DNA of 64,000 nucleotides from assembly GCA_019120615.1 (NCBI GenBank), contig DWUT01000013.1, positions 2,519-66,518 on the forward strand. The letters run 5' to 3'. Below the pieces are notes generated by a model, which ran no database searches, was not told where the DNA came from, and worked only from the letters and a program-made list of their open reading frames with translations. A program made the translations under genes and the position numbers. Source of the stretch: Candidatus Mediterraneibacter norfolkensis. Lineage in GTDB: Bacteria; Bacillota; Clostridia; Lachnospirales; Lachnospiraceae. Within the stretch, counting starts at the first letter, position 1; each line of letters begins with the position of its first letter. This document shows, piece by piece, positions 1 to 34,485 of this stretch.

Positions 1-1776
1 CTTTGTGGATACCTGGTCGTTGATCAGTTCAAGAATCTCATTGTATTCATTGATCATCTGGGTGACCGTCTCAACAATCTTGTCTGTGTCCGCCTTGGCC
101 GTGAATGTCACAGCCTCCGTATTCTGAATCCGGTCCCCCTTCTCGTCATAGCCGAAGGTGCCGTTTACCGTGATATTCAGACCATCCACGCTCACCGTGT
201 TGGAGTCCCTGACGATCTCGGTCACTTTATTGCTTCCCGCATACTGTACGGCGATGATAGCGTCCTTCCCCTCTGAAACAGTATAACCGCCGGCATCCTT
301 TGTGCCAAACAGGGCGTCCGCCACGTTCCCTGACACCGTCACATGCCCGCTGGCGCCGTTCTGCGTCGCAGTGATGATAAAGCGGTCTGTGTTCTCCTGG
401 TAAGAGATAGTCACACCGGCCTCCGGATCGTTGTTGACCGCGTCTATGATATCCTGGATCGTGCTGTCCGCTGTGATTCCATCTATGGTCTTTCCGTTGA
501 TGACCAGGGACAGAGGCTGAGTTGTATCAAGACTGTTCTTCAGTCCGGACTCAGCGATCGTGGCAGACAGATTCAATCTGTTAGAAACTCCATTCTGGAC
601 TCCAAACAGGGAGTCCTCGCCGGTCAGATAGCCTGTGGATGACGTAATGGAAAGAGTGGAAGAATTATCGTCCGCTCCCGAGGTCACCCTGCCGTCAGCA
701 CCCGTTACGGGTGTGGTCGTCTTAAATGAAAGGGATCCATTCCCACTGCCATCCGTTGTCAGGTCTACCCTGATCCTTCCGTTTCCGAACGCGCTGTTGA
801 GTTCGTCCTGAAGATAGGTCTGCAGTTGATCCAGTGTATTGATCGAATTAAACTCATCCTCAGAGGGCATCTCAATCCATTTGATCGTGCCGTTGTACTC
901 GAAGCTGATGGACTGTCCCGCCAGTTGTTCTTTGATCGTCTTAGACTGAATTGCCGTATTTGTGTTATCTGCTGTAACAGATCTGTTGGTCGCGATCTCA
1001 ATCCCGCCACTCGGCACGGTGAATCCAAGCGTTTCCATGATCTTATTGGATCCCCCTGTGATTGTGATCGTATTTCCCGCACTGTCCTTATTATTAATAA
1101 CCAGCTTATCACCGTCAAGGGATACCTCCATTACGTCAGCCAGAGTTTTTCCGTCGCTCATCGTCACTTCCTTCAGTGATTTGTTGATAGAATCCGCCAC
1201 ATCCTGGGGAGTGTTATAGGAATATCCGTCGCCTCTGCCCAGTGTTACAGTATAGCTGGTATTTCCGTACTTCAACCTAATGGATGATCCCCCAGCGGTG
1301 TTCACTTGCACATTAGCATTAAGATTAGTTGAAATATTCCCCAGAGAAAGTTCTCTGTCTGATGCGTTCTGAGTTGTGGTGAGAGTCGCCTTCTGAGCCA
1401 TCTGTTTTACGCCCAGCACTGTGAGAAGATTCGCAGACTGCGCGGATCCGCTCACTGAGATATACTTGCTGTTCTCTCCGTTTACCGTAACGTCTGAAAG
1501 CCCGAAAAGGGCAGATCCCAGCAGGTTGGTGCTGGAGCTATAAGATGTATACTTCTGTGTAAAATCATAAATCTTGTCCGTGATCTCTCTGATCGCTTCC
1601 TGTTCCCACTCGAGCTTTGTCTTCTGCTGATTTAAACTATCAATCTTGGACTGTGTGCCGGATGTAAGCTGTTCGATCAGTGTATCACGATCCAAACCAC
1701 TCGCCAGTCCGCCGTAACCTCTGATCGAACTTGTGCTCGCAGAAGTTGTGGATGAAAGGCCTCCTATTGTCGCCAT
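1..1776 (-). CDS. fliD: Flagellar filament cap protein FliD (hook-associated protein 2), N-terminal 592 codons; the C-terminus lies beyond the window start
   Basis: Not in the ORF track because no stop falls inside the window. The minus frame is open for all 592 codons from ATG 1774-1776, with GGAG about 10 nt upstream. The N-terminus MATIGGLSSTTS..IRGYGGLASGLDRDTLIEQL..KIDSLNQQKTKLEWEQEAIREI is the conserved FliD N-terminal region. Confidence 0.85.
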   Translation of the reverse strand, partial: MATIGGLSSTTSASTSSIRGYGGLASGLDRDTLIEQLTSGTQSKIDSLNQQKTKLEWEQEAIREITDKIYDFTQKYTSYSSSTNLLGSALFGLSDVTVNGENSKYISVSGSAQSANLLTVLGVKQMAQKATLTTTQNASDRELSLGNISTNLNANVQVNTAGGSSIRLKYGNTSYTVTLGRGDGYSYNTPQDVADSINKSLKEVTMSDGKTLADVMEVSLDGDKLVINNKDSAGNTITITGGSNKIMETLGFTVPSGGIEIATNRSVTADNTNTAIQSKTIKEQLAGQSISFEYNGTIKWIEMPSEDEFNSINTLDQLQTYLQDELNSAFGNGRIRVDLTTDGSGNGSLSFKTTTPVTGADGRVTSGADDNSSTLSITSSTGYLTGEDSLFGVQNGVSNRLNLSATIAESGLKNSLDTTQPLSLVINGKTIDGITADSTIQDIIDAVNNDPEAGVTISYQENTDRFIITATQNGASGHVTVSGNVADALFGTKDAGGYTVSEGKDAIIAVQYAGSNKVTEIVRDSNTVSVDGLNITVNGTFGYDEKGDRIQNTEAVTFTAKADTDKIVETVTQMINEYNEILELINDQVSTK

Positions 1777-1828: not shown

Positions 1829-1855
1829 TTATCGTCACTTTTTTATTTTTCTAAA
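1829..1855 (-). promoter_or_regulatory. Candidate sigma-28 (SigD/FliA)-type promoter for fliD
   Basis: The minus strand reads TTTA-N15-GACGATAA. The -10 octamer matches the sigma-28 consensus GCCGATAA at 7/8, but the -35 (consensus TAAA) is poor. It sits in the 102-nt gap between the ComFB-like gene and fliD. Confidence 0.35.
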
Positions 1856-1878: not shown

Positions 1879-2466
1879 TTATTTGTGATGAGGGTTCTTC
1901 TGAACCGCCATGCATGCTTTTGTCACTTCTACTGTTATCCTTCCCGCGTACTTTGTCGAATAGAAATTCATCAGCGGAGAGACTGCGCTCCGGTTGATCA
2001 CAACATACTTGGCCGGCAGCTCCGTGAGCGCAAGAGCGGTCACATCCGCAAGACATCTGCGGCATCCGCAAACATGGAACTGACTGATATACTGCGGTAC
2101 TTTCTCCTTGACCAGACGCTCCATCACATTAACAATAAAGAAATCGTCCTCCTCTTCCTCTGCCTTCTCGGAAGAAGGTTCCTGGGCCTTTTTCGGAGGT
2201 TCTTCTTTTTTTTCAGAGACCGGCGCTTTCTGCTTCTGTGCTTCCTGCTCTTTCTTCGCCTCTTTCTCATCCATCTCCTCTTTCACGGCTGTCTGGAACT
2301 CTTTCTCCAGCGTATCCCGTATCTGATCAGCCACACCGTCGTCGTTTTTGCGCACGATGGATACGCTGGGCGGCTGTCCTGCCGGGGTCTCCGTCTCGGA
2401 AGCCGCTTTCACTCCCGATGTGAGAAGGTTCAGTACATGGTTTGTCTTATTTGTTTTCCTGCTCAT
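1879..2466 (-). CDS. ComFB-domain protein with a long charged low-complexity N-terminal region
   Basis: 195 aa, ATG 2464-2466. The C-terminal ~85 aa (VNVMERLVKEKVPQYISQFHVCGCRRCLADVTALALTELPAKYVV..KACMAVQKNPHH) fit the ComFB family, including the CxCxxC cysteines. The N-terminal ~110 aa are K/E/A/P-rich. Confidence 0.7.
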   Translation of the reverse strand: MSRKTNKTNHVLNLLTSGVKAASETETPAGQPPSVSIVRKNDDGVADQIRDTLEKEFQTAVKEEMDEKEAKKEQEAQKQKAPVSEKKEEPPKKAQEPSSEKAEEEEDDFFIVNVMERLVKEKVPQYISQFHVCGCRRCLADVTALALTELPAKYVVINRSAVSPLMNFYSTKYAGRITVEVTKACMAVQKNPHHK

Positions 2467-2489
2467 ATGATGTGTTCCTTCTCTCTTAT

Positions 2490-3263
2490 TTATTGTCCGG
2501 ATCCGATTCTGCCCATGACCTCATCCACAAACATGGAATAGTCTTTTGCCGGATTTGATCTGGGGGCATAGGAAAAGATATCGCTCCCATGGGCCGGTGC
2601 TTCCGCCGCCGCCACACCAGAACGAATCTTTGCGTCAAAAAGCGCTGTTTTTGTCTGCTCAGCCACAGCTTCGGCCATCTCCAGCACATCGGCGGCAAGC
2701 CGTGTCCTGCGGTTGTATTTCGTCAGCAGGATTCCGAGAACCCGAAGTCTCGGATTCACGGACGCCTTTACTTCACTGACCGTCTCCTGGAGCTGGATCA
2801 GCCCTACCAGGCTCAGGATCTCTGATGCCATGGGGATGATCAGATAATCGGAGGCCGCGTATCCGTTCAGTGTCAGTATGTTCAGCGAAGGAGGGGTGTC
2901 AATGATAATGAAGTCGTAATCATTTCTCACCTGATCCAGCGATTCCCGCAGGAGCATTACCCTGTTCGCGGACTGGAACTCGATCTCCGCTTCACTTAGA
3001 AGAATATTGGACGGAATCACATGATATCCGTCCTCTGTTGTATGAATGACCTCATTTACCGGAGTCCTGTTCTTGAGCATATCATAGACAGTGAGGGAAT
3101 TATCGATATCCATCCCTAGGCTGAACCCAAGGTTTCCCTGTGGATCCAGGTCTATGGCAAGGACTCTTTTTCCCCGGCGTACCAGCCCGGCTGTGAGAGC
3201 CGCCGCAGTCGTTGTTTTCCCGACTCCGCCCTTCTGATTCGTCAATACGATTGTAACAGCCAC
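2490..3263 (-). CDS. ParA/Soj-family ATPase (orphan, no adjacent ParB)
   Basis: GTG start at 3263 with GGAGG 8 nt upstream. Carries the deviant Walker A NQKGGVGKTT, plus AIDLDPQGN and IIIDTPPS. It is collinear with Soj/ParA rather than with the MinD/FlhG signature. Confidence 0.85.
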   Translation of the reverse strand: MAVTIVLTNQKGGVGKTTTAAALTAGLVRRGKRVLAIDLDPQGNLGFSLGMDIDNSLTVYDMLKNRTPVNEVIHTTEDGYHVIPSNILLSEAEIEFQSANRVMLLRESLDQVRNDYDFIIIDTPPSLNILTLNGYAASDYLIIPMASEILSLVGLIQLQETVSEVKASVNPRLRVLGILLTKYNRRTRLAADVLEMAEAVAEQTKTALFDAKIRSGVAAAEAPAHGSDIFSYAPRSNPAKDYSMFVDEVMGRIGSGQ

Positions 3264-3275
3264 TTTTTTCCTCCT

Positions 3276-4583
3276 TTACTGCAGCACATCCTCGATTTTT
3301 TCCCCGGTATTCTCCCGTGGCTTGAACATGCTGTCTTCGCCTGGCCTTGTATACTCTCCGGTCAGGCTGTCCCAGACAGAACTTACCTCTTCCACGCAGT
3401 TGATATAAATCTGGGACAGAAGGGAAGTCGGAACGTCCATCTCTTTTGCGAGGATCTGGCACTGTTTCCAATCTGCTTTCTCGTAGCAGATCACAAGGTC
3501 AAGCAGCTTGCCCGCGTCGCCTTCCCTTCGGATCAGGGCGTTCTTTATCACCGTGTCGATCGGGATTTCACCGATGATCTCCTCTATGGAAGCGTCTACC
3601 ATATATTCCAGAGTAGAAAACATTCCCATCATATAAGCTTCTGAAGGAGTGATGAATTTCATTCCTGTATTCTGGATCAATTCTTCTGCAAATTTCGCGC
3701 GGAGGAACGAAAGCCTTAAGATCTCATCAGATCCCTCGCTTCCCTCGTTGTTCAGACTCAGCATATAGATCCACTGGCGGAGCTGGCTGATACCCATGGT
3801 CATGATCGCCTGCTGGATCGATGCGGTTCTCCTGCGAAGAGCAAAATAGGCAGAATTGACCAGCTTCAGGAGAGAGTAACTCAGTCCCGCGTCCCTGCTG
3901 ATGATCTCTTCGATCTCAGAGATATCCGGCTCATCGCGTGATACCGCAACAACAAGCTGGAAGAAGTTCCCCTGAAGGTAATCCACTTTCTCAGCCTTTA
4001 CAGAAAGAGTTTCCGCTACATAATTCCCTTCGATATAATCCGCCTTCAGGTCAATCGCCTGTTCATATTCTTCTTTTGTATCCGCATCAGTGACGATACA
4101 CTTTTTCCCGAATCCATGAGTCATGTTGATCACATTCTCCATAGACACTTTCTCTTTTGACGACAGATTTTTCTTCATCCTCAGCCGGATAAAATCAGCA
4201 TATTCCAGCAGACTGAAGTATTTTGGAGAAAACTGGAAATCATTGATGGCAAAACGGTAACCTTCCTTGTGGTATTTCTCGATGATCGGCATTGCCAGCG
4301 GATGAACGATCAGGTTGTCGCCAATTTGTATCACAACTTTGTCTTTCTGGAAGATCTTGGGAGTGTTCCTCAAAAGCAAAGACGGTGTAAAAGTCAGGAA
4401 TATCTGCTTCTCTCGGAATATCTTATCACTGTTGTTCATCAGGAAGCTGGCAATCGTGTCTGCTGCAGAATTACTGTTTTCTCCGTACAGATCCTCTCCT
4501 CCTTTTTCGAACAAAAGCTCATATCCGAGAATGTGGTCCGAGTCCACCGACCTTATTGCACGTTTAACTACGAACTGTTTCAT
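3276..4583 (-). CDS. EAL-like (degenerate) plus HDOD domain signalling protein, PdeH/YuxH architecture (COG3434-like)
   Basis: Start moved to ATG 4583 (GGAGG RBS); the ORF-track start at 4697 would overlap cheV by 134 nt. The N-terminus has an EAL-fold signature (GYELLF). The C-terminus has an HDOD-like segment (LLKLVNSAYFALRRRTASIQQAIMTMGISQLRQW). Confidence 0.7.
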   Translation of the reverse strand: MKQFVVKRAIRSVDSDHILGYELLFEKGGEDLYGENSNSAADTIASFLMNNSDKIFREKQIFLTFTPSLLLRNTPKIFQKDKVVIQIGDNLIVHPLAMPIIEKYHKEGYRFAINDFQFSPKYFSLLEYADFIRLRMKKNLSSKEKVSMENVINMTHGFGKKCIVTDADTKEEYEQAIDLKADYIEGNYVAETLSVKAEKVDYLQGNFFQLVVAVSRDEPDISEIEEIISRDAGLSYSLLKLVNSAYFALRRRTASIQQAIMTMGISQLRQWIYMLSLNNEGSEGSDEILRLSFLRAKFAEELIQNTGMKFITPSEAYMMGMFSTLEYMVDASIEEIIGEIPIDTVIKNALIRREGDAGKLLDLVICYEKADWKQCQILAKEMDVPTSLLSQIYINCVEEVSSVWDSLTGEYTRPGEDSMFKPRENTGEKIEDVLQ

Positions 4584-5499
4584 CTTTCTTCCTCCTTTCG
4601 ATAAGTTCATCCATGATGGAGACCAGATGGCCGATCTCCGGTTTGGAGAGTTGCTCGTCAGCGCCAAGCTCTCTTCCTTTTCTTTCCATCTCCTCATTGA
4701 TAAGTGAAGAGAATATGATCAGAGGTATTTTTTTGAGCTTTTCATCGCTTTTTACCAGTTTTGTGAGATGATGCCCGTCCATCTGCGGCATCTCAATATC
4801 TGTAATGATCAGGGCCGCCTTCTCTGAGAGATCGGAATCATTACGGATCGACTCAAGATAATTCCAGGCTTCCTGACCGTTATTGAATTTCTTGATATTG
4901 TGATATCCCGCCTTATTCAGGGACTGTTCCACCATGCGCGACAGGAGCAGGGAGTCTTCCGCAAAGATGATCGACTCGTTCTTCCTCACTTCCTCCGGCA
5001 CCTGCTTCACTTCGTCCAGCTGTATCCCGGTCTCGGGCGCGATCTCAGCCACGATCTTCTCAAAGTCAAGGATGGTGACGAGATCCGTGCCGCACTGAGC
5101 GATCCCTGTCGCTATCCCTTCCTCTTTTCCGCTGTTGAGCGTCTTGTCCGGCTTGCGGATATCCGCCCAGGAAATCCTCCGTATCCCTACTACAGTATGC
5201 ACGCGGAACGCAATATTCATCTTGTTAAAATTTGTAATGATAAAAAGATCTTTCTCCTGGGGAGTGGTCGTCCTGCCGGTCAGATAGAAAGGAAGATCCA
5301 CCACAGTCAGCATGATATCTCTGGGTTTAAATATTCCCTCCACAGCGGAATCCGAGTGAGGAATTGGTTTTACATGGGCGGACATCATGATCTCTTTGAC
5401 TTTCGCCACATTGATCCCATACAGCTCCCCGTAGATTGTAAATTCCATGATCTCAATTTCATTCGTCCCTGATTCCAGCAATATCGATGTTTCTGCCAT
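4564..5499 (-). CDS. cheV: Chemotaxis coupling protein CheV (CheW-like domain plus receiver domain)
   Basis: N-terminal CheW-like domain (EIEIMEFTIYGELYGINVAKVKEI) followed by a receiver domain (IIFAEDS..IITDIEMPQMDGHHL..LSKP). GGAGG RBS. Confidence 0.9.
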   Translation of the reverse strand: MAETSILLESGTNEIEIMEFTIYGELYGINVAKVKEIMMSAHVKPIPHSDSAVEGIFKPRDIMLTVVDLPFYLTGRTTTPQEKDLFIITNFNKMNIAFRVHTVVGIRRISWADIRKPDKTLNSGKEEGIATGIAQCGTDLVTILDFEKIVAEIAPETGIQLDEVKQVPEEVRKNESIIFAEDSLLLSRMVEQSLNKAGYHNIKKFNNGQEAWNYLESIRNDSDLSEKAALIITDIEMPQMDGHHLTKLVKSDEKLKKIPLIIFSSLINEEMERKGRELGADEQLSKPEIGHLVSIMDELIERRKKDETVRS

Positions 5500-7367: not shown

Positions 7368-8120
7368 TTACTGTGTCGGGCCAAGGTTGGTCGTCATCTG
7401 GCTGATCAGCTGATCGTATATCCTCATGATCTGAGCAGAACTCTGAAGCGCTCTCTGGCTTGCCATCATGCGTGTCATCTGCTCTACCGGGTCTGCGTTG
7501 GAATTTTCCAGTGTTCTCCAGCTGATCTGCGCGTCAGTCTGCACGGCATTCCCCGCAGAGGTAAAGATATTGCCTTCACCTTTGAGAAGCTGGTCGTAAT
7601 CCTGGAAATCAACGACCATCAGCTGGCCCAGCAGTGCGTCGGACTGCTCATCATAGATGCGGCCCTGACTGTCTGCGGTCACTCTGTCTGTACCCAGATA
7701 GATGGGGCCGTTTTCGCCGAGCACACGGCCGACGCCGGGAAGCGTAAGATAGCCCTCATCGTCCAGGGAGAAACTTCCGTCCCTCGTATACACTGTCCCG
7801 TCGTCAGTCTGAACCGGGAAAAACCCGTTTCCGCTGATGGCAAAATCCAGCGCGCTGTCCGTTGTGGAGAAAGTTCCCTGAGAGTAATCCGTCACAGTTC
7901 CGTCTCCGGCAGTGATCATAGACTTATCTCCGATCACAGTCGTACCGGCTTTGACCTTATTTCCGGTCCTCAGAAGAAGTTCACTCTGAAAATCAGATAT
8001 GATGAACCGATCCTCCTTAAATCCCGGAGTCGTGACATTGGACATGTTGTTGCTGATCACATCGAGGTTTCTGCTCTGAGTGAGCATCCCTGATGTCAGT
8101 CTGTAAAACCCTTGAAACAT
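7368..8120 (-). CDS. flgF: Flagellar basal-body rod protein, FlgF/FlgG family
   Basis: N-terminal MLTQSRNLDVISNNMSNVTTPGFK and C-terminal LENSNADPVEQMTRMMASQRALQ. It is the upstream gene of the pair, and the naming is by order only. Confidence 0.7.
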   Translation of the reverse strand: MFQGFYRLTSGMLTQSRNLDVISNNMSNVTTPGFKEDRFIISDFQSELLLRTGNKVKAGTTVIGDKSMITAGDGTVTDYSQGTFSTTDSALDFAISGNGFFPVQTDDGTVYTRDGSFSLDDEGYLTLPGVGRVLGENGPIYLGTDRVTADSQGRIYDEQSDALLGQLMVVDFQDYDQLLKGEGNIFTSAGNAVQTDAQISWRTLENSNADPVEQMTRMMASQRALQSSAQIMRIYDQLISQMTTNLGPTQ

Positions 8121-8126
8121 ATTGCG

Positions 8127-8924
8127 TCATCCTTTCTTTGCATTTATCTGCAGTTCCTGCTCTATATAATTGCGGAGTTTTCTGATCGCTCCTGAGTGGA
8201 GCTGGGAAATCCTCGGCTCACTTACATTCATAACCTGCGCAATCTCCCTCATATTTAATTCTTCGACATAATAGAGGGAAATAATAATCCTTTCTTTCTC
8301 TTTCAGCATCTCAATTCCTTTAACCAGGATCTCTGACATCTCTTTTTTGAGGTAGGTCTCTTCCGGCTGCTGAGCTTCATCAGCCGTCGGAATCTGCGAT
8401 GATCTCTGCTTTTCCTGAGCTTCCATCATAATCATATCAAGGGATACGATGGACAGGAGACTTTTCTTCCCGATAATTTCCTGATATTTTGAATAAGGCA
8501 TCTGCAGATATTCCGCAACTGCCCTCGAATCAGGGGTTTTCCCGTTTTTCACCGTGAGCTCGGCGATAGCGTTATCTATCATTTTCATGTTTTTACGCAC
8601 ATTTCGGGAACCCCATTCCTGTTTCCTGGCAATATCTATGATCATACCACGGATCCTCCGGGACAGGTAAGTCTCAAATTTCGCATTTTTCTGGCTGTCA
8701 TACTTGTCCAGCAGATTCATCAGTGTGATGACTCCCTCCTGGACGATATCTTCTACCTGCGCAAAATTCAGATAAACGTCCCTCATCTGGATCGCGATCA
8801 TCCTCACAACATACATGTATCTTTTGACAAGCTCATGCTTCAGCTCCAGGCTTTGTGTCCGCGCATACTCATCAAGCATTTCTTCATTTGTCATATCTTT
8901 ATATTTGCCGTCAACCTGATTCAT
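8127..8924 (-). CDS. sigD: Flagellar sigma factor sigma-28 (SigD/FliA family)
   Basis: Sigma-70 family regions 2-4, with region 4 HTH LNMREIAQVMNVSEPRISQLHSGAIRKLR. ATG 8924 is preferred (AAAGAGGAAG RBS); the GTG at 8951 used by the ORF track is an alternative. Confidence 0.85.
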   Translation of the reverse strand: MNQVDGKYKDMTNEEMLDEYARTQSLELKHELVKRYMYVVRMIAIQMRDVYLNFAQVEDIVQEGVITLMNLLDKYDSQKNAKFETYLSRRIRGMIIDIARKQEWGSRNVRKNMKMIDNAIAELTVKNGKTPDSRAVAEYLQMPYSKYQEIIGKKSLLSIVSLDMIMMEAQEKQRSSQIPTADEAQQPEETYLKKEMSEILVKGIEMLKEKERIIISLYYVEELNMREIAQVMNVSEPRISQLHSGAIRKLRNYIEQELQINAKKG

Positions 8925-8961
8925 CTTATCTTCCTCTTTCGTGATGCTCACTCACATCATT

Positions 8962-11031
8962 TTACGGTGTGATACTGCCGATCACCTGAATCTGGATATT
9001 GTTTGTCACTTCCTGGAAGGACAGGACATTCAGATCAGGATAGATCGGTTCCAAAAGCTGATAGACATATAAGCGCAGGACCTGGCTTGTAAGCAGGACC
9101 GGCTCTCTGGAAAGCTCGGCGAACTTTTTCATCTCGTTTCCGAGCTGAGTGATCATATTCTGCACTACATCCGGTTTCAGGGAGATCTGAACCCCTGAAT
9201 CTCCGCGGACAAGGCTTTCCACCATCATACGCTCCAGATCCGCATCCAGTGTGATCACATTCATCTGCCCGTCGCGGCAGAACTTCCTCGTTATGGTCCG
9301 TGACAGCGCGCTTCGGACGTTTTCGGTCACTGCGTTTAGATCCGATGTGTTCGGAATGCTGTCCGCCGCGAACTCCACGATGGTCTCCAGATCCTTGATC
9401 GGGATATTCTCCTTCAGCAGACTGACAAGGATCTTCTGAAGAGAACTGTATGACAGGATCCCTGGGATACTGTCCTCCACGAGTTCGGGTGCCGTCTTCT
9501 TCAGACTTTCCACGAGCTGAACCGTCTCCTGACGGCTGAGCAGTTCATATGCATGCCTGCGGACAGTCTCTGAGAGGTGGGTCACCATGACGGAGAGAGG
9601 ATCGATCACTGTATATCCGTATATCTCAGCCATCTCCCTGTTTTCCGGAAGGATCCATTTACTTGGGATGCCGTATGCCGGTTCTATCGTCTCGATTCCG
9701 TCTATCTCTCCGGAAGGCTCAGACGGCTCCAGAGCCAGGTAATAGTCCACAAGGATCTCTCCTCTTGCCACTTCCTCTCCCTTGATCTTTATCCGGTACT
9801 GATTCGTATTCAGGGCGGAACTGTCTCTCAGCCGGATGGACGGGATGACAAGCCCCATCTCCTGAGCGTACTGGCGCCGGAAGATCACGATCCGGTTCAT
9901 CATCTTTCCACCGCTGCCCTCATCCACCAGGGGAATCAGGCTGTACCCGAATTCCATCTCGATGGGCTCAACCCCGATCAGGGAATACACATGGTTGATA
10001 TCCCTGTAGTATTCGTCCGGAGACGTTTCCTGCTGTTCCGCAGCAGCCTTTGCCTGTTCCCGGACCGCCTCCTCTTCCTTCACCGCAGCTTCCCGCATGC
10101 TCTGAGAGAGACGGAAACCGGCAAACAGGAGCACAGCGCCCAGCACAATCAACTGAAGGCGAGGCATCCCCGGTATAAAGACAAGTACAAGAAGAACGAT
10201 ACCTGCAATCATGATCGCTCTCGGCTGAGCCAGGAACTGCTTGGACACATCCTCGTTCAGGCTTCCCTCTGAGACGGATCTGGTAACGATCATACCTGTC
10301 GCTGTAGAAATCAGGAGGGCCGGTATCTGGGATACAAGTCCGTCACCGATCGTAGCGATAGAATAGACCGTAAGAACCTCTGTGAGTTCCATGCCGCCCT
10401 GCAGCATTCCGATGACAGAGCCTCCAACCAGATTGATCACCGTGATCAGGAGGGACATGATGGCATCACCTTTGACGATCTTTGTAGCACCGTCCATCGC
10501 GCCATAGAAGTCCGCCTCCCTCTGGATGTCGGAACGTCGCTTTCTCGCCTGCTCCTCCGTGATCAGTCCGGAACTTAAATCCGCGTCCACGGCCATCTGT
10601 TTTCCGGGCATGGCGTCCAGGGTAAATCTGGCAGCGACCTCAGCCACACGCTCGGCTCCCTTTGTGATAACCAGGAACTGAACGAGGAGGATAATGATAA
10701 ATACGATAAATCCGACAACAGCATTTCCCTGGAGTACAAAATCACCGAACGCCTGAATAACCTGTCCGGCCTGTCCCTGGTTCGTCAGGATGTTTCTGGT
10801 AGAAGAAACGTTAATGCCCAGACGGAACAAGGTGGTCACCAGGAGCAGGGACGGGAAAATTGAAAACTCCAGCGGAGACTTGATATTCATGCTTATAAGC
10901 AGAATAATCATGGATATGGAAATATTTATAATAATCAGTACGTCCAGAAGAAACGGACTTAATGGTATAATCAGCAGTAAAACAATCGTGATCACAAAAA
11001 GTGATACTGCATTGTTCAGTAGTCTTCTCAT
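8962..11031 (-). CDS. flhA: Flagellar type III export gate protein FlhA
   Basis: 689 aa. N-terminal multi-TM region with FHIPEP-type motifs (GDGLVSQIPALLISTATGMIVTR) and a large cytoplasmic C-terminal domain. Confidence 0.95.
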   Translation of the reverse strand: MRRLLNNAVSLFVITIVLLLIIPLSPFLLDVLIIINISISMIILLISMNIKSPLEFSIFPSLLLVTTLFRLGINVSSTRNILTNQGQAGQVIQAFGDFVLQGNAVVGFIVFIIILLVQFLVITKGAERVAEVAARFTLDAMPGKQMAVDADLSSGLITEEQARKRRSDIQREADFYGAMDGATKIVKGDAIMSLLITVINLVGGSVIGMLQGGMELTEVLTVYSIATIGDGLVSQIPALLISTATGMIVTRSVSEGSLNEDVSKQFLAQPRAIMIAGIVLLVLVFIPGMPRLQLIVLGAVLLFAGFRLSQSMREAAVKEEEAVREQAKAAAEQQETSPDEYYRDINHVYSLIGVEPIEMEFGYSLIPLVDEGSGGKMMNRIVIFRRQYAQEMGLVIPSIRLRDSSALNTNQYRIKIKGEEVARGEILVDYYLALEPSEPSGEIDGIETIEPAYGIPSKWILPENREMAEIYGYTVIDPLSVMVTHLSETVRRHAYELLSRQETVQLVESLKKTAPELVEDSIPGILSYSSLQKILVSLLKENIPIKDLETIVEFAADSIPNTSDLNAVTENVRSALSRTITRKFCRDGQMNVITLDADLERMMVESLVRGDSGVQISLKPDVVQNMITQLGNEMKKFAELSREPVLLTSQVLRLYVYQLLEPIYPDLNVLSFQEVTNNIQIQVIGSITP

Positions 11032-29004: not shown

Positions 29005-30414
29005 ATGAACCAGAAATCAGCTTTAAAGTGGAAAATGCGTATCGCCTGTTTCTTACTCACATTGATCGCCTGTATTGCTTCGGTGATCGGCATCATCACA
29101 TCTTTAGGGAATGGTTCCTCGTTGATCCTTACTGTGATTGAGATCATTCTGTTGGTAGCGGCCCTGATCCTTCCTTTCCTTTTTATTTATATGACAAGAG
29201 CACTGCTGTTCACTCCTCTGGAGGAATGTGCAGAGAGACTGCATGCCCTTGCCGAAGGCGATCTGGACAGCCCCATCCCTGCACACGATGCCGATGGCGA
29301 GATCGGATATCTTGTGAAGAGCACGGAACAGATCGTTAAAAATCTTCGCACGATCATTTCAGACGAAAGCCGTATCCTGACTTCCATGAGTTCCGGAGAT
29401 TTTACTATCAACAGTGAATGCCGGGAGCTGTACGTCAATGGCTTCGCACCGATTCTGGAATCCATGAGGAAGATTTGTTTCCGCCTGAATTCTACCCTTC
29501 ACCAGATCCAGGAATCTTCGGTTCAGGTAGACGCCGGTGCGGATCAGGTATCCACCGGCGCCCAGGCACTTTCACAGGGTGCCACAGAGCAGGCGAGTTC
29601 GGTTCAGGAGCTGGCCGCAACCATCAACGACATTTCGAATCAGGTTTCAGAAGCCGCGAAAAATGCTGAATCTGCAAGCAACCTTGCAAGCAGTGTTGGA
29701 AATGACATGATGGACAGTAATCTCCATATGAGTGAGATGACAAATGCAATGGCCGAGATCAAGGAGACATCCAACCAGATCCATAAGATCATCAAGACGA
29801 TCGAGGATATTGCATTCCAGACAAACATTCTTGCGCTGAATGCCGCAGTCGAAGCTGCAAGGGCGGGCTCCGCCGGAAAAGGATTTGCCGTTGTTGCGGA
29901 AGAAGTCCGTAATCTCGCTGGCAAGAGTCAGGATGCAGCCCAGGATACCACAGTCATGATCCAGAACGCCATCGCCGCAGTGGATAAGGGAATCCATATT
30001 GCAGATGAGACCGCTGAATCCATGAACAAAGTTGTAGCGAATGCGCAGCTTGTCGTTGATCAGATCTCATCCATCTCCGGCACTTCCCGTGCTCAGGCTG
30101 ATGCGATCTCACAGGTTACAACCGGCATCGACCAGATTTCCAGTGTTGTACAGACAAATTCGGCCACAGCCGAGGAAAGCGCCGCTGCCAGCGAAGAACT
30201 GTCAGGTCAGGCTGCTCTGTTAAAAAATCTTCTTGCAGGCTTCAAGTTCCGTCATGATCATGATGCAGAATGCATACAGCCAGCGTCTGTATCTGCTGCT
30301 GAAGAACCGGAATTTGAAGAGTCCTCCTTTGAAGAGCCGTCTTATTTGCAGAACGATACATATACTCCAAATGAGACAACAGCTCCATTTACAGGAAACA
30401 GCGATAAATACTGA
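29005..30414 (+). CDS. Methyl-accepting chemotaxis protein with two TM segments, almost no external loop, a HAMP domain and a signalling domain
   Basis: 469 aa. Highly conserved hairpin tip [41 protein letters not shown]1 and TM2 are separated by only about 5 residues (GNGSS). Confidence 0.95.
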
Positions 30415-30498: not shown

Positions 30499-30843
30499 CT
30501 ATTGCTCATCTGCTGCGTCATCTGTGCCTTCCTCCTGCGGGAGCTGCTCCGCTGTACCCCCGTTCTCCTTCCTTTGCTTCCCGTAATTCAGGAAATACAC
30601 ATAGATATCAACAATCGCAGCGTAAAGCTCCTCAGGTATCTCACTTCCCAGATCAAGCTGGGTAAGCACTGTGGCAAGAGAATTATCCTCGTAGATCGGG
30701 ACCCCGCTGTCTTTCGCCGCCTCTATAATCCGCTGAGCCATATATCCCATGCCCGAAGCAACAATAACCGGCGCCGCGTTTCCTGCCTCATCATAAGACA
30801 GAGCAACGGCTTTCTGATTCAGTACATCATCAAACACTGACAT
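30499..30843 (-). CDS. Stand-alone FlhB C-terminal-domain protein (YlqH-like, EscU/YscU/HrcU family fragment)
   Basis: 114 aa. KAVALSYDEAGNAAPVIVASGMGYMAQRIIEAAKDSGVPIYEDNSLATVL..EIPEELYAAIVDIYVYF is collinear with the part of FlhB after NPTH (compare the FlhB in this window, HYAVALKYD..APVVVAKG). The NPTH site itself is absent. Confidence 0.85.
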   Translation of the reverse strand: MSVFDDVLNQKAVALSYDEAGNAAPVIVASGMGYMAQRIIEAAKDSGVPIYEDNSLATVLTQLDLGSEIPEELYAAIVDIYVYFLNYGKQRKENGGTAEQLPQEEGTDDAADEQ

Positions 30844-32278
30844 TGATCGAATTCTTCCTTTCTCTCAGTCTTGGAAACGCTTCTGTTATCGGAATGGATA
30901 TATTACTCTTTCCGAGCACAAGCTCTTCCGTCTCTATTGAATGTTCACTCAGGATACGCCTGATGTCTTCCTGGATTTTCCTGCTGTCTTCCTCAAGCCC
31001 GTCCGGGATATTGATCTGCATGGATACCCTCTCCCTTCCATAGGAAAAGAACATGTCAAAAAATCCCAGATCTTCTATATCAAATTTCACCAGTCCGCGG
31101 ATGTTTCGCTGCCCTCCACTCTCCCTGGCCTGTTCGCCGCCGTTTCCATCTGCGTCCGGATCCACCCACATTTCAGAAAACATCATTTGTCCGTCCACGC
31201 AGACGGGCATCATAACATGCAGAACCGGCATATAGACGCTCTCATTAAGCACGACAGCCTCCATGATTCTCATAAAAGCCTGACTGTTTTCTGGCCCGGC
31301 TTCTCCCGATGCGCCTTTTCTTATGATATCAGCCAGTTTGCCCATCTCCTGGTTCTGTTGGATCGCTTTTTCATATTCTGTTCCGGCAAGCACGTCGAAA
31401 AGTTTCCCTATATCAAATCCCTGGAAATACTGCTGCATAGTCTGGTAATCAAACAGCTTTTCAAAAGCTTTGAGCACCCCTTCGCTCTGACCGTTTTCAT
31501 ATCTTCCCGTCAGATCCGCCATATGCGCAACCGTATCCCTCAGCACGCCTCTGTCATGTGTTTTGGAAATATAGCTGTTCAGATAGGGAAGAAGATCTGA
31601 TTTCAGAGTGCGCAGATTTTCCGCCTTCTGTTCCGGCGTTCCACCTCCACTGTCTGTGTTATATATCATCCTCTGTTCAAAATGCTCCGCCTGTTCTCTG
31701 GCTTTTGGCATCATTCTCTGCCGAATCTCATTCATATCGCGCTGAATATCAGACAGAACATTCCCTCCCTCGGCCATATCTGTATACTTCTTCAGAAAAT
31801 TCAGGATCCCGTTTTTCAGTTCCACTGACTGCGTCTCCGAAAGCACCCTGCGCAGCAAAGCGAAAAATGCACCTGTATAGCGGACCGAAGACTGAACCTG
31901 TGCTTTGAGCAGACTTCCAATATTCTCAGGACTCACATTGATCATTTTCAAAAACTCGGCAACCTCAGCCGCGAACCCGCTCCCCATTCCAGATTCTACC
32001 GTCATACCTGCAAATTCATTGAGGAGCTTTGGGAGTTCTTCCGCAAGCACAGGCATGTTTTTCAGCTGCTGGACAAATGTATCAAAATTTGTCTCGAACT
32101 GAAACCTCATGTCATCAGGCTGCCCGGAAGCGTCGCTTCTTGCATCGGGTTTGACGACTTTTGCAGGATTTACAGCGCCCTGGACATTGACCGGATTCTG
32201 CAGTTCAGGATTGGCTTTTACGTTGTTCATATTGTCATATCCTGTTGTCGGGGTAGTGACTTTTAAAATATTTGGCAT
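30830..32278 (-). CDS. Hypothetical protein, translationally coupled to the FlhB-C-like gene; C-terminus weakly FliK-C-like
   Basis: 482 aa with no TM. The 14-nt overlap with the downstream gene suggests coupling. The C-terminal VKFDIEDLGFFDMFFSYGRERVSMQINIPD resembles the LxLxPxxLGxIxI..V.I pattern of FliK C-domains (by eye only). Confidence 0.5.
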   Translation of the reverse strand: MPNILKVTTPTTGYDNMNNVKANPELQNPVNVQGAVNPAKVVKPDARSDASGQPDDMRFQFETNFDTFVQQLKNMPVLAEELPKLLNEFAGMTVESGMGSGFAAEVAEFLKMINVSPENIGSLLKAQVQSSVRYTGAFFALLRRVLSETQSVELKNGILNFLKKYTDMAEGGNVLSDIQRDMNEIRQRMMPKAREQAEHFEQRMIYNTDSGGGTPEQKAENLRTLKSDLLPYLNSYISKTHDRGVLRDTVAHMADLTGRYENGQSEGVLKAFEKLFDYQTMQQYFQGFDIGKLFDVLAGTEYEKAIQQNQEMGKLADIIRKGASGEAGPENSQAFMRIMEAVVLNESVYMPVLHVMMPVCVDGQMMFSEMWVDPDADGNGGEQARESGGQRNIRGLVKFDIEDLGFFDMFFSYGRERVSMQINIPDGLEEDSRKIQEDIRRILSEHSIETEELVLGKSNISIPITEAFPRLRERKNSINVSV

Positions 32279-32326: not shown

Positions 32327-32415
32327 GAACGACAGAGGTATCTGAGACGGTGTATTCACACAGAACAGCAACCGACTGTCAACATAAATAAATTTAATCA
32401 AAGGCGGTGCAAAAC

Positions 32416-34485
32416 ATGGATAACGGAACTGACAGCTTACTCGATACATATCTATTTGAAACCAATTCGCTGCTTGAACGGTTGGATGAACTTCTTATCG
32501 AGGCTGAGCAGAATAAAGACTTCACGGAGGACGAGGTCAATGAAATCTTCCGCAGCATGCATACAATCAAAGGTTCCTCCGCCATGCTGGAATTTAACTC
32601 TCTGATGGAGATTGCCCATCACATCGAGGATCTGTTTTTCTACATCAGGGAAAACGGAATGTCTGCCCTTGATGCACAGCAAAAGACTGAGTTATTCAAT
32701 CTGATGTTTAAATCTGTTGACCGGCTTCGCGAAGAAGTCGAGAAAGTAGAGAACAGTGAACCTCTCAGTACTAATATCGACAGTTTTATTAAGGAGATAA
32801 ACGATTTTTTATCTAAAATAAGCAATCAGGAACAGGCGGCACAGAATGATTCAGACACCGGCTCAGCGCCGTTGTCTGCGGCGGGCAGGCCTTCAGCTTC
32901 TGTTCTGCCGGAGTGTCCTTACTGCATCCGTGTTTTCTTTCAGGATGGATGCGGTATGGAGAATCTGAGAGCATTCATGCTGGTCACTACCCTGAACGAA
33001 AGCGGGTACGATTTTTCTTATTATCCTTCGGATGTGGAAACAAACAGCGCCTCATCCCAGCAGATCATTGAAAACGGGTTCTACATCGGATTTCAGGATG
33101 AGGAGTCTGCCAATAAGGCATCTGTGATCGTGGCGGGCAGCAACAATATTCATTCCTATGAGATCATTCAAAATGAAGCCGGATCCGAGGAGCCCGAAAA
33201 GCAGGAAACATCCTCACCTGACCAAAAAAAGCCGGATACTGTCAAGGCTGCAGAGCCCAAAAAGCAGGCCGTGCCTGTACACCATGCTCCGGTCAAGCAG
33301 AATCTGATCAGCGTTAATCTTTCAAAGCTGGACAGCCTTATGGCACTTGTTGGAGAGATTGTTATCACGGAATCCATGGTAACTTCCTCCCCGGACTTAA
33401 AAGGATTAAAGCTTGATAATTTTATGAAATCTGCTCGTCAGCTCCGAAAGCTGACCGACGACCTTCAGGATATATCTATGTCCCTTCGCATGGTCTCTGT
33501 TTCAGGCGTGTTTCAGAAGATGAACCGTATCGTACGGGATATGAAAAATACGCTGGGCAAGGACGTCCGTCTCACACTTGTGGGAGAAGATACAGAGCTT
33601 GACAAATCCATCGTGGATAATATAAGCGATCCTATCATGCATATTGTCCGCAATTCCATGGATCACGGGATTGAGGATTCTGTGGACGAGAGGCTTGCCG
33701 CGGGGAAGGACGCTCAGGGAGAGATCATACTCTCCGCCGTCCATACTGGAAACGAAGTGATCATCTCCATCCAGGATGACGGCCAGGGTGTTGATACTGA
33801 TAAAGTTCTCGCCAAAGCAAAAGCCAACGGATTCCTCACAAGGCCGGAGGAGGAATATTCTAAAAAAGATATTCTTGCTCTCCTGATGGAACCTGGATTT
33901 TCTACCAATACCGAGGTTACGGAATATTCAGGCCGGGGCGTCGGCATGGATGTTGTAAAGAAGAATATAGAGTCGCTGGGCGGAACTGTGACCATGTCCA
34001 GTGAAAAGGGGCAGGGTTCCTGTACAACACTGAAGATCCCGCTCACGCTCGCTATTGTGGACGGAATGGAAATCTCTGTGGGAAACTCTGTATTTACAGT
34101 TCCAATCGCAAATATCCGTCAGTCGTTTAAAGTGACGGCTGATAACATCATCTTTGATGCGGCGGGAAATGAACTGATCAAATGCATGGATGACTTCTAT
34201 CCCGTAATACGTCTTCACAAGCTCTACGGCATTTATGAGAATGTACGCACAAATGTGGAAGATGGAATACTGATGTGGGTGGAGGCAAACGACAAGTCAT
34301 ATTGCCTTTTCGTAGACAGTCTGCTGGGCGAACAGCAGGTTGTTGTAAAGCCGCTTCCTTCCTATCTGAATAATTTCGGCATCAAGGATTACGGCATCAG
34401 TGGATTTACGATACTCGGTGATGGAAACATCAGCATTATACTCGACATCGCTGCGATCCACTCTGCGGCCATGAACTCATACTAA
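32416..34485 (+). CDS. cheA: Chemotaxis histidine kinase CheA
   Basis: ATG 32416 is preferred over GTG 32407. P1 Hpt box FRSMHTIKGSSAML, P4 ATPase motifs (HIVRNSMDHGIE, DDGQGVD, GRGVGMDVV) and a P5 CheW-like domain. Confidence 0.95.
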   Translation: MDNGTDSLLDTYLFETNSLLERLDELLIEAEQNKDFTEDEVNEIFRSMHTIKGSSAMLEFNSLMEIAHHIEDLFFYIRENGMSALDAQQKTELFNLMFKSVDRLREEVEKVENSEPLSTNIDSFIKEINDFLSKISNQEQAAQNDSDTGSAPLSAAGRPSASVLPECPYCIRVFFQDGCGMENLRAFMLVTTLNESGYDFSYYPSDVETNSASSQQIIENGFYIGFQDEESANKASVIVAGSNNIHSYEIIQNEAGSEEPEKQETSSPDQKKPDTVKAAEPKKQAVPVHHAPVKQNLISVNLSKLDSLMALVGEIVITESMVTSSPDLKGLKLDNFMKSARQLRKLTDDLQDISMSLRMVSVSGVFQKMNRIVRDMKNTLGKDVRLTLVGEDTELDKSIVDNISDPIMHIVRNSMDHGIEDSVDERLAAGKDAQGEIILSAVHTGNEVIISIQDDGQGVDTDKVLAKAKANGFLTRPEEEYSKKDILALLMEPGFSTNTEVTEYSGRGVGMDVVKKNIESLGGTVTMSSEKGQGSCTTLKIPLTLAIVDGMEISVGNSVFTVPIANIRQSFKVTADNIIFDAAGNELIKCMDDFYPVIRLHKLYGIYENVRTNVEDGILMWVEANDKSYCLFVDSLLGEQQVVVKPLPSYLNNFGIKDYGISGFTILGDGNISIILDIAAIHSAAMNSY

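Follow-up and report, generated by a model that had tools for sequence, protein, structure and literature searches.

Gene layout between cheV and fliD

The window (the whole 64,000-nucleotide stretch of Candidatus Mediterraneibacter norfolkensis DNA that was analysed) carries three closely packed genes between cheV and fliD, encoding an EAL-HDOD protein, a ParA ATPase and a ComFB-domain protein. The three ORFs of the preliminary description, with their coordinates, spacings and position, were all reproduced:

1..1775, minus strand: 5' part of fliD (filament cap), which continues beyond the window edge
1829..1851, minus strand: sigma-28/SigD-like promoter-like element in the fliD leader, GAAA-N11-GACGATAA, by consensus resemblance only
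1879..2466, minus strand: ComFB-domain gene, 195 aa, 23 nt past the ParA stop; candidate ParA adaptor
2490..3263, minus strand: Soj-type ParA/MinD-family ATPase, 257 aa, GTG start, 12 nt past the EAL-HDOD stop
3276..4583, minus strand: degenerate EAL-HDOD gene, 435 aa
3999-4583, minus strand: degenerate EAL domain (Pfam), approximately aa 1-195
3384-3965, minus strand: HDOD domain (Pfam), approximately aa 207-400
4564..5499, minus strand: cheV (CheW-REC, Pfam), lying upstream; stop overlapping the EAL-HDOD start

The EAL-HDOD start codon is M39 of a longer ORF and is preceded by GGAGG, giving a 20-nt overlap with the cheV stop at 4564. At the other end, fliD starts at 1775, across a 103-nt AT-rich gap from the ComFB gene, and a terminator scan predicted no terminator-like hairpin between the two. 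The fliD leader contains no match to a strict sigma-28 pattern, the element listed above representing a looser resemblance; a near-invariant relative of it, TAAAGTATACTATATGCCGATAA, is found upstream of fliD in divergent-type loci. An Rfam scan of the window matched no family, and therefore no c-di-GMP riboswitch was found there. NCBIfam assigned no family to the EAL-HDOD protein and provided only sub-threshold matches for the ParA and ComFB proteins.

Pfam identifies CheW and REC domains in the cheV product, and both EAL (4e-10, profile positions 113-235 only) and HDOD (1e-19) domains in the protein encoded next to it. The EAL fold is confirmed by Foldseek, with a model that made use of database homologues matching EAL structures at E 4e-8. 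When scored against the canonical PdeH-like protein of locus L056 and PDB 6IFQ, the first Glu is the sole residue of the catalytic set to be kept. The EALxR Arg is replaced by E/Q, Asn by Thr, ExxE by QxxD, DD by ND, Lys by Arg, the EGVE Glu by Thr and Gln by Glu, and these changes are family-wide. The alignment thus bears out the earlier suggestion that the catalytic residues are substituted. An active phosphodiesterase of the PdeH/YuxH type was rejected on the grounds that all catalytic and metal-binding residues other than the first Glu are changed. Because the Arg and the metal ligands are lost, ligand binding by this domain is not inferable. An apparent EAL-HDOD-ParA fusion in locus L041 proved to be an artefact of ORF extension, with stop codons present.

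Degenerate EAL proteins are known in flagellar control, as in E. coli/Salmonella YdiV and Caulobacter TipF, and the residue loss observed here resembles that of YdiV, TipF, FimX and LapD. B. subtilis PdeH (YuxH) is itself an EAL-HDOD protein, and thus shares the architecture of the window protein. In contrast to the active PdeH, the EAL domain here appears catalytically dead; unlike YdiV, TipF and PdeH, the gene is translationally coupled to cheV and the EALxR Arg is also lost. The gene is a frequent neighbour of the ParA and ComFB genes, yet many loci lack it. Its reading frame overlaps that of cheV by 14-19 nt in 47 of 51 loci, is missing in 14 loci that have cheV, and remains with the fla/che operon where the ParA and ComFB genes are located on the other strand. 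On balance, we favour a catalytically dead, cheV-coupled sensor or adaptor belonging to the fla/che operon, and not to the obligatory core of the cassette described below.

A Soj-type ParA and its ComFB-domain neighbour

The ParA protein matches Pfam AAA_31 (1e-53) and aligns over nearly its full length with Thermus thermophilus Soj (1WCV/2BEK; E 3e-48, bit score 168), with an identity to Soj proteins of approximately 40-45%. The deviant Walker A motif NQKGGVGKTTT, as well as the DLDPQGN and DFIIIDTPP motifs, are at least 90% conserved across 78 orthologues. The YNRRT segment lines up with ydgRt in T. thermophilus Soj and with DART in B. subtilis Soj, and the Arg equivalent to the DNA-binding R189 of the latter is kept. 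The N-terminus begins MAVTIVLTNQKGG, with no extension and without the FlhG N-terminal motif, while the C-terminus aligns with the last Soj helix and has no membrane-targeting helix. Identification as FlhG was rejected, given the lack of an N-terminal FlhF-activating motif, the Soj-like C-terminus and a position that is not after flhF. Source databases name the protein merely 'ParA family protein' or 'Soj'. No ParB-like gene is present in the Pfam-annotated flanks (5-10 kb each side) of 11 representative loci, nor does one occur within 10 kb in near-identical relatives (94% for the ComFB protein) whose loci were annotated with Pfam, in agreement with the earlier view of a Soj-like ParA without ParB.

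The ComFB-domain protein consists of the following segments:

2419..2466, minus strand: N-terminal peptide MSRKTNKTNHVLNLLT, aa 1-16, basic; candidate ParA-docking and ATPase-stimulating motif
2143..2418, minus strand: acidic, charged low-complexity linker, aa 17-108
2233-2337, minus strand: helix in the linker, aa 44-78, moderately conserved, V-x-V-V...[IV]AD-x-I-x-x-x-LE-x-E[LF]
1882..2142, minus strand: C-terminal ComFB domain, aa 109-195, with Zn-type Cys triad C133/C135/C138

The description of this protein as a ComFB domain preceded by a short basic N-terminus and about 100 aa of low-complexity sequence is therefore correct. The peptide is near-invariant in the family, M-x-[RK]-K-[TS]-N-K-T-x-H-V-L-[NG]-L-L, with N6, K7, T8, H10, V11 and L12 invariant; this rests on an alignment of matches of a whole-protein search and on position counts over 82 sequences. 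An AF2 model predicts a short helix for residues 8-16, with a low pLDDT in keeping with folding upon binding. Across the family, the linker ranges from 52 to 381 aa, with a median D/E content of 27% and a median net charge of -24. It is modelled as disordered at 18-41 and 80-102 with the intervening helix at 44-78, in which L53 is approximately 90% conserved.

Pfam places the ComFB domain at residues 112-192 (2e-18; 66.4 bits versus a curated cut-off of 25, PF10719), and it is modelled at pLDDT >92. The best Foldseek matches are 4WAI (TM 0.72-0.77, by target length) and 8HJA, the c-di-GMP-bound CdgR. In Firmicute ComFB, Zn is bound by Cys25/27/30, the dimerisation residues are N4, E7, D33, N40 and Y46, and c-di-GMP is contacted by D33, N40, K/R41, A36, L37, V47 and Y55; both N40 and K41 are required for dimerisation and c-di-GMP binding in the B. 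subtilis protein (PMC12448109). Using this numbering (in which Y55 is not alignable), the window protein retains D141, A144, L145, Y154 and V155, equivalent to D33, A36, L37, Y46 and V47. It thus shares the fold, the Zn Cys triad and these five residues with B. subtilis ComFB and cyanobacterial CdgR (PMC12448109, PMC12265714, PMC10068817). Within the subfamily, the Cys triad and D33 are conserved at 100%, Y46 at 96%, E7 at 90% and N4 at 78%. Unlike in B. subtilis ComFB and cyanobacterial CdgR, the two polar contact residues N40 and K/R41 are unconserved: the N40 position is Thr in 71% and Asn in 18% of the subfamily (T148 in the window protein), and only 13/82 sequences (16%) retain K/R41 (E149 here). 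An invariant, subfamily-specific Lys (K153, the S45 position) is located four residues downstream of the K41 position. Further differences are an additional N-terminal extension of 110-400 aa that carries the invariant peptide, and an obligate ParA neighbour. With N40 and K41 unconserved as canonical contacts for c-di-GMP, nucleotide gating is conjectural; with T/E at these positions, and an EAL domain that lacks its Arg and metal ligands, the second-messenger gating originally proposed for the locus is weakened.

Conservation of the ParA-ComFB pair and its flagellar context

In 84 of 85 related loci, the ParA gene immediately precedes the ComFB gene. These loci are from Lachnospiraceae, Zhenpiania and Proteocatella, and the sole exception is a 937-bp contig. 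The median gap is 9 nt and the reading frames often overlap. The cassette is conserved in at least approximately 250 species of gut Clostridia. As the 80 genome loci were retrieved using the N-peptide pattern itself, invariance of the peptide in that set is partly by construction; independent support comes from the whole-protein search and from ParA-first sampling of homologues, which returned the same pair in 3/3 cases. One seemingly peptide-less homologue (P0081) was rejected as such, the gene being frameshifted with the peptide still encoded. A phmmer search with the N-terminal 60 aa against 1.84 billion representatives yielded 8 matches, 2 of which are low-complexity false positives; this search was underpowered, and the peptide may also occur on domains other than ComFB.

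The conserved unit is ParA plus ComFB, two genes as opposed to three. Of the three-gene module put forward in the preliminary description, the ParA-ComFB part stands, while the EAL-HDOD gene is separable. In all likelihood, as had been suspected, the ComFB protein serves this orphan ParA as its dedicated partner: the genes are adjacent and usually translationally coupled, and a near-invariant peptide is followed by a hypervariable linker. The opposing view, that adjacency is meaningless and that an ATPase for chromosome or plasmid partition merely lies beside an unrelated ComFB gene, could draw on the database names and the level of identity to Soj. We consider it extremely improbable in view of adjacency across families with overlapping or near-touching frames, the conserved peptide on the partner, the lack of a ParB gene nearby, and the fact that the pair has stayed together where it is inverted with respect to the fla/che operon.

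The most constant neighbour of the pair is fliD-fliS, which abuts it in 78 of 85 loci, with six loci that have sufficient flanks lacking an adjacent fliD. This adjacency occurs in two gene orders, and the linkage thus survives rearrangement, upholding the flagellar connection originally suggested. A genomic link to late flagellar genes is also a feature of ComFB in B. subtilis and Treponema denticola, and an EAL-HDOD protein of the PdeH type is a further shared element of the functional setting. Genes related to c-di-GMP recur beside the pair, examples being the degenerate EAL-HDOD gene, the canonical PdeH-like gene of L056 and the GGDEF genes of L087 and L066, 51-54 nt downstream. In 63/63 loci, flhA is followed by a sigma gene with a gap of at most 67 nt, and therefore no flhF/flhG is located at that place.

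The synteny bears on two further readings. The pair could position or segregate chemoreceptor arrays on the nucleoid, similar to Vibrio ParC/ParP or Rhodobacter PpfA/TlpT: cheC, cheD and cheV are located just upstream in the co-directional arrangement, many divergent-type loci have MCP genes no more than a few kb away (immediately downstream in L083), and a che operon is present elsewhere in the window. We regard this as quite unlikely. The constant neighbour is fliD-fliS as opposed to che genes, and 13 divergent-type loci have the pair but no che gene within 8-10 kb; moreover, the partner lacks any CheW-like or MCP domain, and the phenotypes known for ComFB relate to the function of flagella or pili. 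The link to chemoreceptor arrays that had been raised for this locus finds nothing specific in its favour. Alternatively, the cassette could be a transcriptional or regulatory device, in which DNA-bound ParA recruits, or is controlled by, the ComFB protein to tune late flagellar genes such as fliD. In divergent-type loci, the ParA start is approximately 45 nt from the near-invariant sigma-28-like fliD promoter element, FlhG-FlrA control offers a parallel, and cyanobacterial ComFB/CdgR is reported to act through the binding of transcription factors (PMC10068817; 10.64898/2026.03.27.713163). We nevertheless give this reading little credence: ParA has no sequence-specific DNA-binding domain, and in loci of the co-directional type the pair is simply read along with the rest of the long operon.

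A candidate nucleoid-templated system for flagella

We lean, with modest confidence, towards a two-gene cassette in which a Soj-type ParA ATPase acts with its dedicated partner as follows. ParA-ATP dimers would bind the nucleoid non-specifically, and the invariant Lys-bearing N-terminal helix of the partner (KTNKTxHVLNLL) would dock on ParA and stimulate ATP hydrolysis, by analogy with the peptides through which ParB/Spo0J, McdB, ParP/TlpT and MinE act on their own ATPases. The long acidic disordered linker would serve as a flexible spacer, with the dimeric Zn-ComFB domain gripping a flagellum-related target. In net terms, a flagellar component or regulator would be distributed or sequestered with the nucleoid as template. 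Binding of c-di-GMP or c-di-AMP may modulate the contact between ComFB and its target, as in B. subtilis ComFB, although this step is uncertain.

Partners of ParA/MinD ATPases bind via a charged, disordered N-terminus (PMC10241942, PMC11407121). Like the ParA-ParB, McdA-McdB, ParC-ParP, PpfA-TlpT and MinD-MinE systems, the cassette combines a Soj-like deviant Walker A ATPase with a partner gene immediately downstream, and the pair adjoins genes of the presumed cargo. The ComFB protein further resembles ParB, McdB and ParP in having a short charged disordered N-terminal peptide, a linker and a cargo-binding domain. It differs from the partners in these systems in that the cargo domain is ComFB, a c-di-NMP receptor family, and in the lack of a centromere-binding, CheW-like or MCP domain. 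Membership of the ParC/ParP or PpfA/TlpT groups was rejected, since the partner has a ComFB domain only, without CheW-like/AIF or MCP signalling domains. ComFB as a cargo domain is absent from reviews of ParA/MinD positioning systems, and our literature search found no paper linking ComFB to ParA and none relevant for a ParA-like protein with fliD, in line with the earlier impression that the combination had not been described. The cassette has the look of a ParA-based system, of a kind not yet described, for the positioning or regulation of flagella.

In both B. subtilis and Shewanella, c-di-NMP receptors of the ComFB family inhibit flagellar motility (PMC12448109, PMC12265714), and their targets in motility control are explicitly stated to be unknown (PMC12265714). 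As has been proposed for B. subtilis ComFB, the protein could act chiefly to brake or declutch the flagellar motor in response to c-di-GMP. ParA would then have no part in positioning flagella and would only buffer the brake through nucleoid holding and ATP-dependent release or partition. B. subtilis ComFB-c-di-GMP inhibits flagellar function and not production, an effect enhanced by loss of PdeH; the fold and most ligand-pocket residues are retained here, and c-di-GMP genes are found nearby in several arrangements. The scarcity of K/R41 and the prevalence of Thr at N40 nonetheless make this reading rather unlikely, as does the fact that no characterised ComFB has a known ParA partner; it also leaves the long variable linker unexplained.

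A more ambitious version of the nucleoid-templated reading, which we put forward tentatively and think rather doubtful, is that in Lachnospiraceae and relatives the ParA takes over the job of FlhF/FlhG in flagellar number, spacing or inheritance, gated by c-di-GMP or c-di-AMP. As with FlhF/FlhG, a ParA/MinD-family ATPase is encoded with flagellar genes and could play a comparable role. Unlike FlhG, this ATPase is Soj-like and not MinD-like, with neither an FlhF-activating motif nor a C-terminal amphipathic membrane helix; there is no FlhF partner, and the gene is located beside fliD and not after flhA. Should this version be true, the adaptor being a cyclic-dinucleotide receptor, c-di-GMP or c-di-AMP would directly gate ParA-type positioning, and ParA/MinD ATPases would be candidate targets of ComFB proteins generally, including that of B. 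subtilis.

Chromosomes, carboxysomes, flagella and chemoreceptor arrays all have ParA/MinD ATPases that organise them, in each case via a dedicated partner, and we know of no second-messenger-binding partner described for any of them. Recognition of ComFB proteins as a third class of c-di-GMP/c-di-AMP receptors with a wide distribution dates only from 2023-2025, and the cassette provides a concrete candidate partner for one of their number. It also suggests a route to flagellar organisation in Firmicutes without flhF/flhG in the flagellar operon. The carriers include abundant flagellated gut commensals of the genera Mediterraneibacter, Dorea, Faecalicatena and Enterocloster, whose flagellins are relevant to host immunity.

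Gene order in the window and in related loci

Three minus-strand genes occupy the interval between cheV and fliD; open reading frame positions and Pfam domains agree with the coordinates and spacings in the preliminary description. The features are as follows:

4583-3276, minus strand: EAL-HDOD gene, 435 aa; start at a Met with GGAGG before it, inside a longer ORF
3263-2490, minus strand: ParA gene, 257 aa, GTG start; 12 nt 3' of the EAL-HDOD gene
2466-1879, minus strand: ComFB-domain gene, 195 aa; 23 nt 3' of ParA
1775 to beyond the window edge, minus strand: fliD, separated from the ComFB gene by a 103-nt AT-rich gap

The cheV stop and the EAL-HDOD start overlap by 20 nt (window 4564-4583). 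Pfam searches identified EAL (4e-10, C-terminal half of the profile only) and HDOD (1e-19) in the first product, AAA_31 (1e-53) in ParA, ComFB (2e-18) at residues 112-192 of the third, and CheW plus REC in the cheV product. The genes further upstream, also on the minus strand, are flhA, one for a SigD/FliA-type sigma factor, two flgG-like rod genes, cheC and cheD, and a Mediterraneibacter MAG matches the window at 94-99% protein identity. Elsewhere in the window, a 482-aa ORF (30830-32278, minus strand) flanked by an MCP gene (29005-30414, plus) and cheA (32407-34485, plus) has no Pfam match at E<=1e-5.

An alignment of 33 ComFB homologues retrieved by whole-protein search revealed a near-invariant N-terminal peptide of 15 residues, M-x-[RK]-K-[TS]-N-K-T-x-H-V-L-[NG]-L-[LI], while overall identity drops to ~32%. 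Scanning 185,579 species, each represented by a single genome, with this pattern gave 270 stretches, 248 of which encode a ComFB relative. We analysed 85 loci, comprising 80 of these 248 and 5 non-redundant loci from protein look-ups. Most are from Lachnospiraceae (Mediterraneibacter, Dorea, Faecalicatena, Muricomes, C. symbiosum, E. bolteae and Blautia), together with Zhenpiania, Proteocatella and some MAGs labelled Oscillospiraceae; many of the 85 are MAGs with loose taxonomic labels. As the peptide was used for retrieval, its invariance in the 80 genome loci is partly by construction. Two checks address this circularity: a homologue apparently devoid of the peptide turned out to carry a frameshift, with the peptide still encoded, and sampling from ParA first (homologues 59-64% identical) led in three of three cases to the same gene downstream and to fliD as a neighbour. 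The frameshift (L083:7745-8555, a long-read-style metagenome contig) splits the ComFB gene after the peptide, leaving only the 3' part annotated by the gene caller, and may reflect either misassembly or a pseudogene.

In 84/85 loci the gene immediately preceding the ComFB gene encodes a ParA orthologue, with a median gap of 9 nt and many overlaps; the exception is a 937-bp contig. That this adjacency is meaningless is hardly credible. The fliD-fliS genes adjoin the pair in 78/85 loci, either downstream in the same direction, which is the arrangement of the window (48 loci), or upstream and divergent (30 loci), and the pair persists through inversion relative to the fla/che operon. The conserved module is the ParA-ComFB pair, linked to late flagellar genes, its pairing, anatomy, conservation and synteny being directly observed. 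In 35/85 loci the degenerate EAL-HDOD gene precedes the pair in the same direction, in 17 it is convergent at the fla/che operon end, and in 14 it is missing although cheV is present; in the other 19 both cheV and EAL-HDOD are beyond the reach of the sequence. EAL-HDOD is part of the cheV end of the fla/che operon and dispensable for the pair. Thus the three-gene module syntenic with flagellar genes that had been proposed is only partly right: the ParA-ComFB pair and its flagellar linkage stand, and EAL-HDOD is separable. In 47/51 loci that have the gene, its start and the end of cheV share 14-19 nt (20 nt in the window), which suggests translational coupling and a functional tie to CheV, not to ParA. 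Positioning of chemoreceptor arrays by the pair, one of the readings in the earlier proposal, is improbable given the fliD-fliS linkage of the pair. In L084 (6043-7149, plus) an uncharacterised gene of ~368 aa stands between cheV and ParA instead of EAL-HDOD, as it does in L068, L075 (an Enterocloster bolteae MAG) and L079; its domain matches are sub-threshold only, to choline-binding repeats.

Flagellar surroundings

In B. subtilis and many Firmicutes, flhF-flhG are located after flhA. Here, in 63/63 loci (window junction 8951-8962), no more than 67 nt separate flhA from the SigD/FliA-type sigma gene after it, hence flhF/flhG are not at their usual position; both, like a second soj-spo0J, may lie elsewhere in the genomes. 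In divergent-type loci, the fliD/ParA intergenic region of 130-190 nt contains, on the fliD strand, a near-invariant element, TAAAGTATACTATATGCCGATAAATAAGTACAGAG, ~45-60 nt upstream of the ParA start (L024, L025, L043, L053, L054, L057, L063, L069, L070, L076, L078 and others). It carries a sigma-28-like -10 box, and a loose sigma-28 pattern was found on the fliD strand in 17/24 of these loci and on the ParA strand in 0/24. The spacing from TAAA to GCCGATAA is 11 nt, that of B. subtilis SigD being longer; the fliD leader of the window (1829-1851, minus) reads GAAA-N11-GACGATAA. Control of late-gene transcription by the ParA-ComFB pair, a reading on which this element bears, appears unlikely to us. 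FliD itself is ~790-860 aa in the clade of the window (window 1-1775, minus; L081:10708-13134), much longer than the E. coli and B. subtilis caps, at ~470-500 aa. Genes for an ABC-transporter ATPase and an NTP_transf_5 nucleotidyltransferase lie inside the late flagellar cluster of L081 (14079-15973, plus), between fliS/fliT-like genes and flgM-flgN-flgK, and in the same place in L082, L084, L088 and L090.

Properties of the three proteins and a possible cyclic-dinucleotide link

EAL residues of the window protein were compared with 18 orthologues, the canonical PdeH-like EAL-HDOD protein of locus L056 and solved EAL structures. The EAL motif Glu is the only residue of the catalytic set left: the Arg of EALxR is replaced by E/Q, the metal-binding Asn by Thr (FLTFT), ExxE by QxxD, DD by ND, the catalytic Lys by Arg in the window protein, the EGVE Glu by Thr and the Gln by Glu. 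These substitutions are common to the entire orthologous family, in keeping with the degenerate domain first noted. The predicted model retains the beta/alpha pattern and recovers EAL structures at E ~4e-8 (Foldseek). Judged by the residues established as necessary for EAL catalysis, the protein is not a phosphodiesterase.

The closest solved relative of ParA is 8RAY, a 'ParA family protein' (E 6e-49), with T. thermophilus Soj at E 3e-48, both alignments being nearly full-length; identity to B. subtilis Soj is ~40%. All three Walker motifs (deviant A, A' and B) are intact, with conservation of 90% or more among 78 orthologues, and YNRRT keeps the Arg matching DNA-binding R189 of B. subtilis Soj. 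No ParB gene was found in the annotated flanks of any locus examined, as expected of the orphan ATPase initially described. Judged by its sequence, the protein is a standard Soj-type ParA, a member of the ParA/Soj branch without ParB/parS. Neither an FlhG-type N-terminal motif nor a C-terminal amphipathic helix is present. Membership in FlhG was ruled out, as was assignment of ParA and its partner to ParC/ParP.

Across 82 distinct family members, the N-terminal peptide precedes a linker of 52-381 aa (median 27% Asp/Glu, median net charge -24) holding one moderately conserved helix, VxVV...[IV]ADxIxxxLExE[LF], and a conserved C-terminal ComFB domain, an anatomy matching the N-terminal peptide and charged low-complexity stretch reported for the window protein. 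The AlphaFold model contains a low-confidence short helix (8-16), disorder, a helix (44-78), disorder and the ComFB domain (pLDDT >92); by structure it compares best with B. subtilis ComFB (4WAI, TM 0.72-0.77) and c-di-GMP-bound CdgR (8HJA). Residues from PMC12448109 were placed on the subfamily through HMMER alignments (B. subtilis numbering). Zn-binding Cys25/27/30, D33 and A36 are 100% conserved, and L37, Y46, V47, E7 and N4 mostly so; the N40 position is Thr in 71% of sequences and the c-di-GMP-binding K/R41 is retained in only 16%, being Glu in the window protein. Four residues after the lost K41, K153 (numbering of the window protein; LPAKY motif, window 2008-2010, minus) is Lys in 81 and Arg in 1 of 82 sequences; it may have taken over the ligand contact at a shifted position or belong to a new interface.

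ComFB family proteins are experimentally established c-di-GMP/c-di-AMP receptors that inhibit flagellar motility in B. subtilis and Shewanella, and in B. subtilis inhibition is enhanced upon loss of the EAL-HDOD enzyme PdeH (PMC12448109, PMC12265714). In favour of a cyclic-dinucleotide link, c-di-GMP-related genes recur beside ParA-ComFB in independent arrangements: a canonical PdeH-like gene in L056, and, in L087 (8792-11229, plus) and L066 (~7428-9862, plus), a tandem of two membrane-anchored GGDEF genes that begins 51-54 nt after the pair. The first L087 gene has intact GGDEF and RxxD I-site motifs; the second is without the motif. Against the link count the loss of N40 and K41, an EAL domain without its ligand-holding Arg and metal ligands, and the lack of a c-di-GMP riboswitch in the window. 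Nucleotide gating of ParA-ComFB is thus possible and unproven, and a c-di-GMP brake in which ParA is a mere buffer is a doubtful alternative.

A proposed ParA-partner mechanism

As a general rule for ParA/MinD ATPases, the partner's charged, disordered N-terminus contacts and stimulates the ATPase and the remainder binds cargo, the nucleoid serving as matrix for ParA-like members (PMC10241942, PMC11407121). The ComFB protein has exactly the build of such a partner, and we therefore propose a three-step mechanism. The nucleoid would carry ParA-ATP dimers; the KTNKTxHVLNLL helix would dock on ParA and trigger hydrolysis; and the ComFB dimer, on its long acidic tether, would bind a flagellum-related target, which would be distributed or sequestered in a nucleoid-templated manner. 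We infer the ParA-peptide contact, DNA binding, the cargo and any ligand control. By eye, the peptide presumably resembles the Lys/Arg-containing ParB/Spo0J N-terminus, with a basic residue followed 4-5 positions on by hydrophobic-Leu-x-x-Leu.

Literature searches returned no paper joining ComFB with ParA and none on ParA-like genes next to fliD, consistent with the combination being previously undescribed. A ComFB survey lists combinations with REC, CheR, PATAN, PspA-like, Ig-like and GGDEF domains and several neighbourhoods, and does not mention a ParA neighbourhood. Database names are limited to 'ParA family protein' or 'Soj' for the ATPase, 'late competence development ComFB family protein' for its partner and 'EAL and HDOD domain-containing protein' for the EAL-HDOD product. 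Domain and fold place the window partner in the ComFB family, from which it differs at two ligand/dimer residues and by a unique N-terminal extension; the ATPase belongs to the ParA/Soj branch, but without ParB/parS. We rate ParA-ComFB as a known kind of system, a ParA with its partner, in which the type of partner is new.
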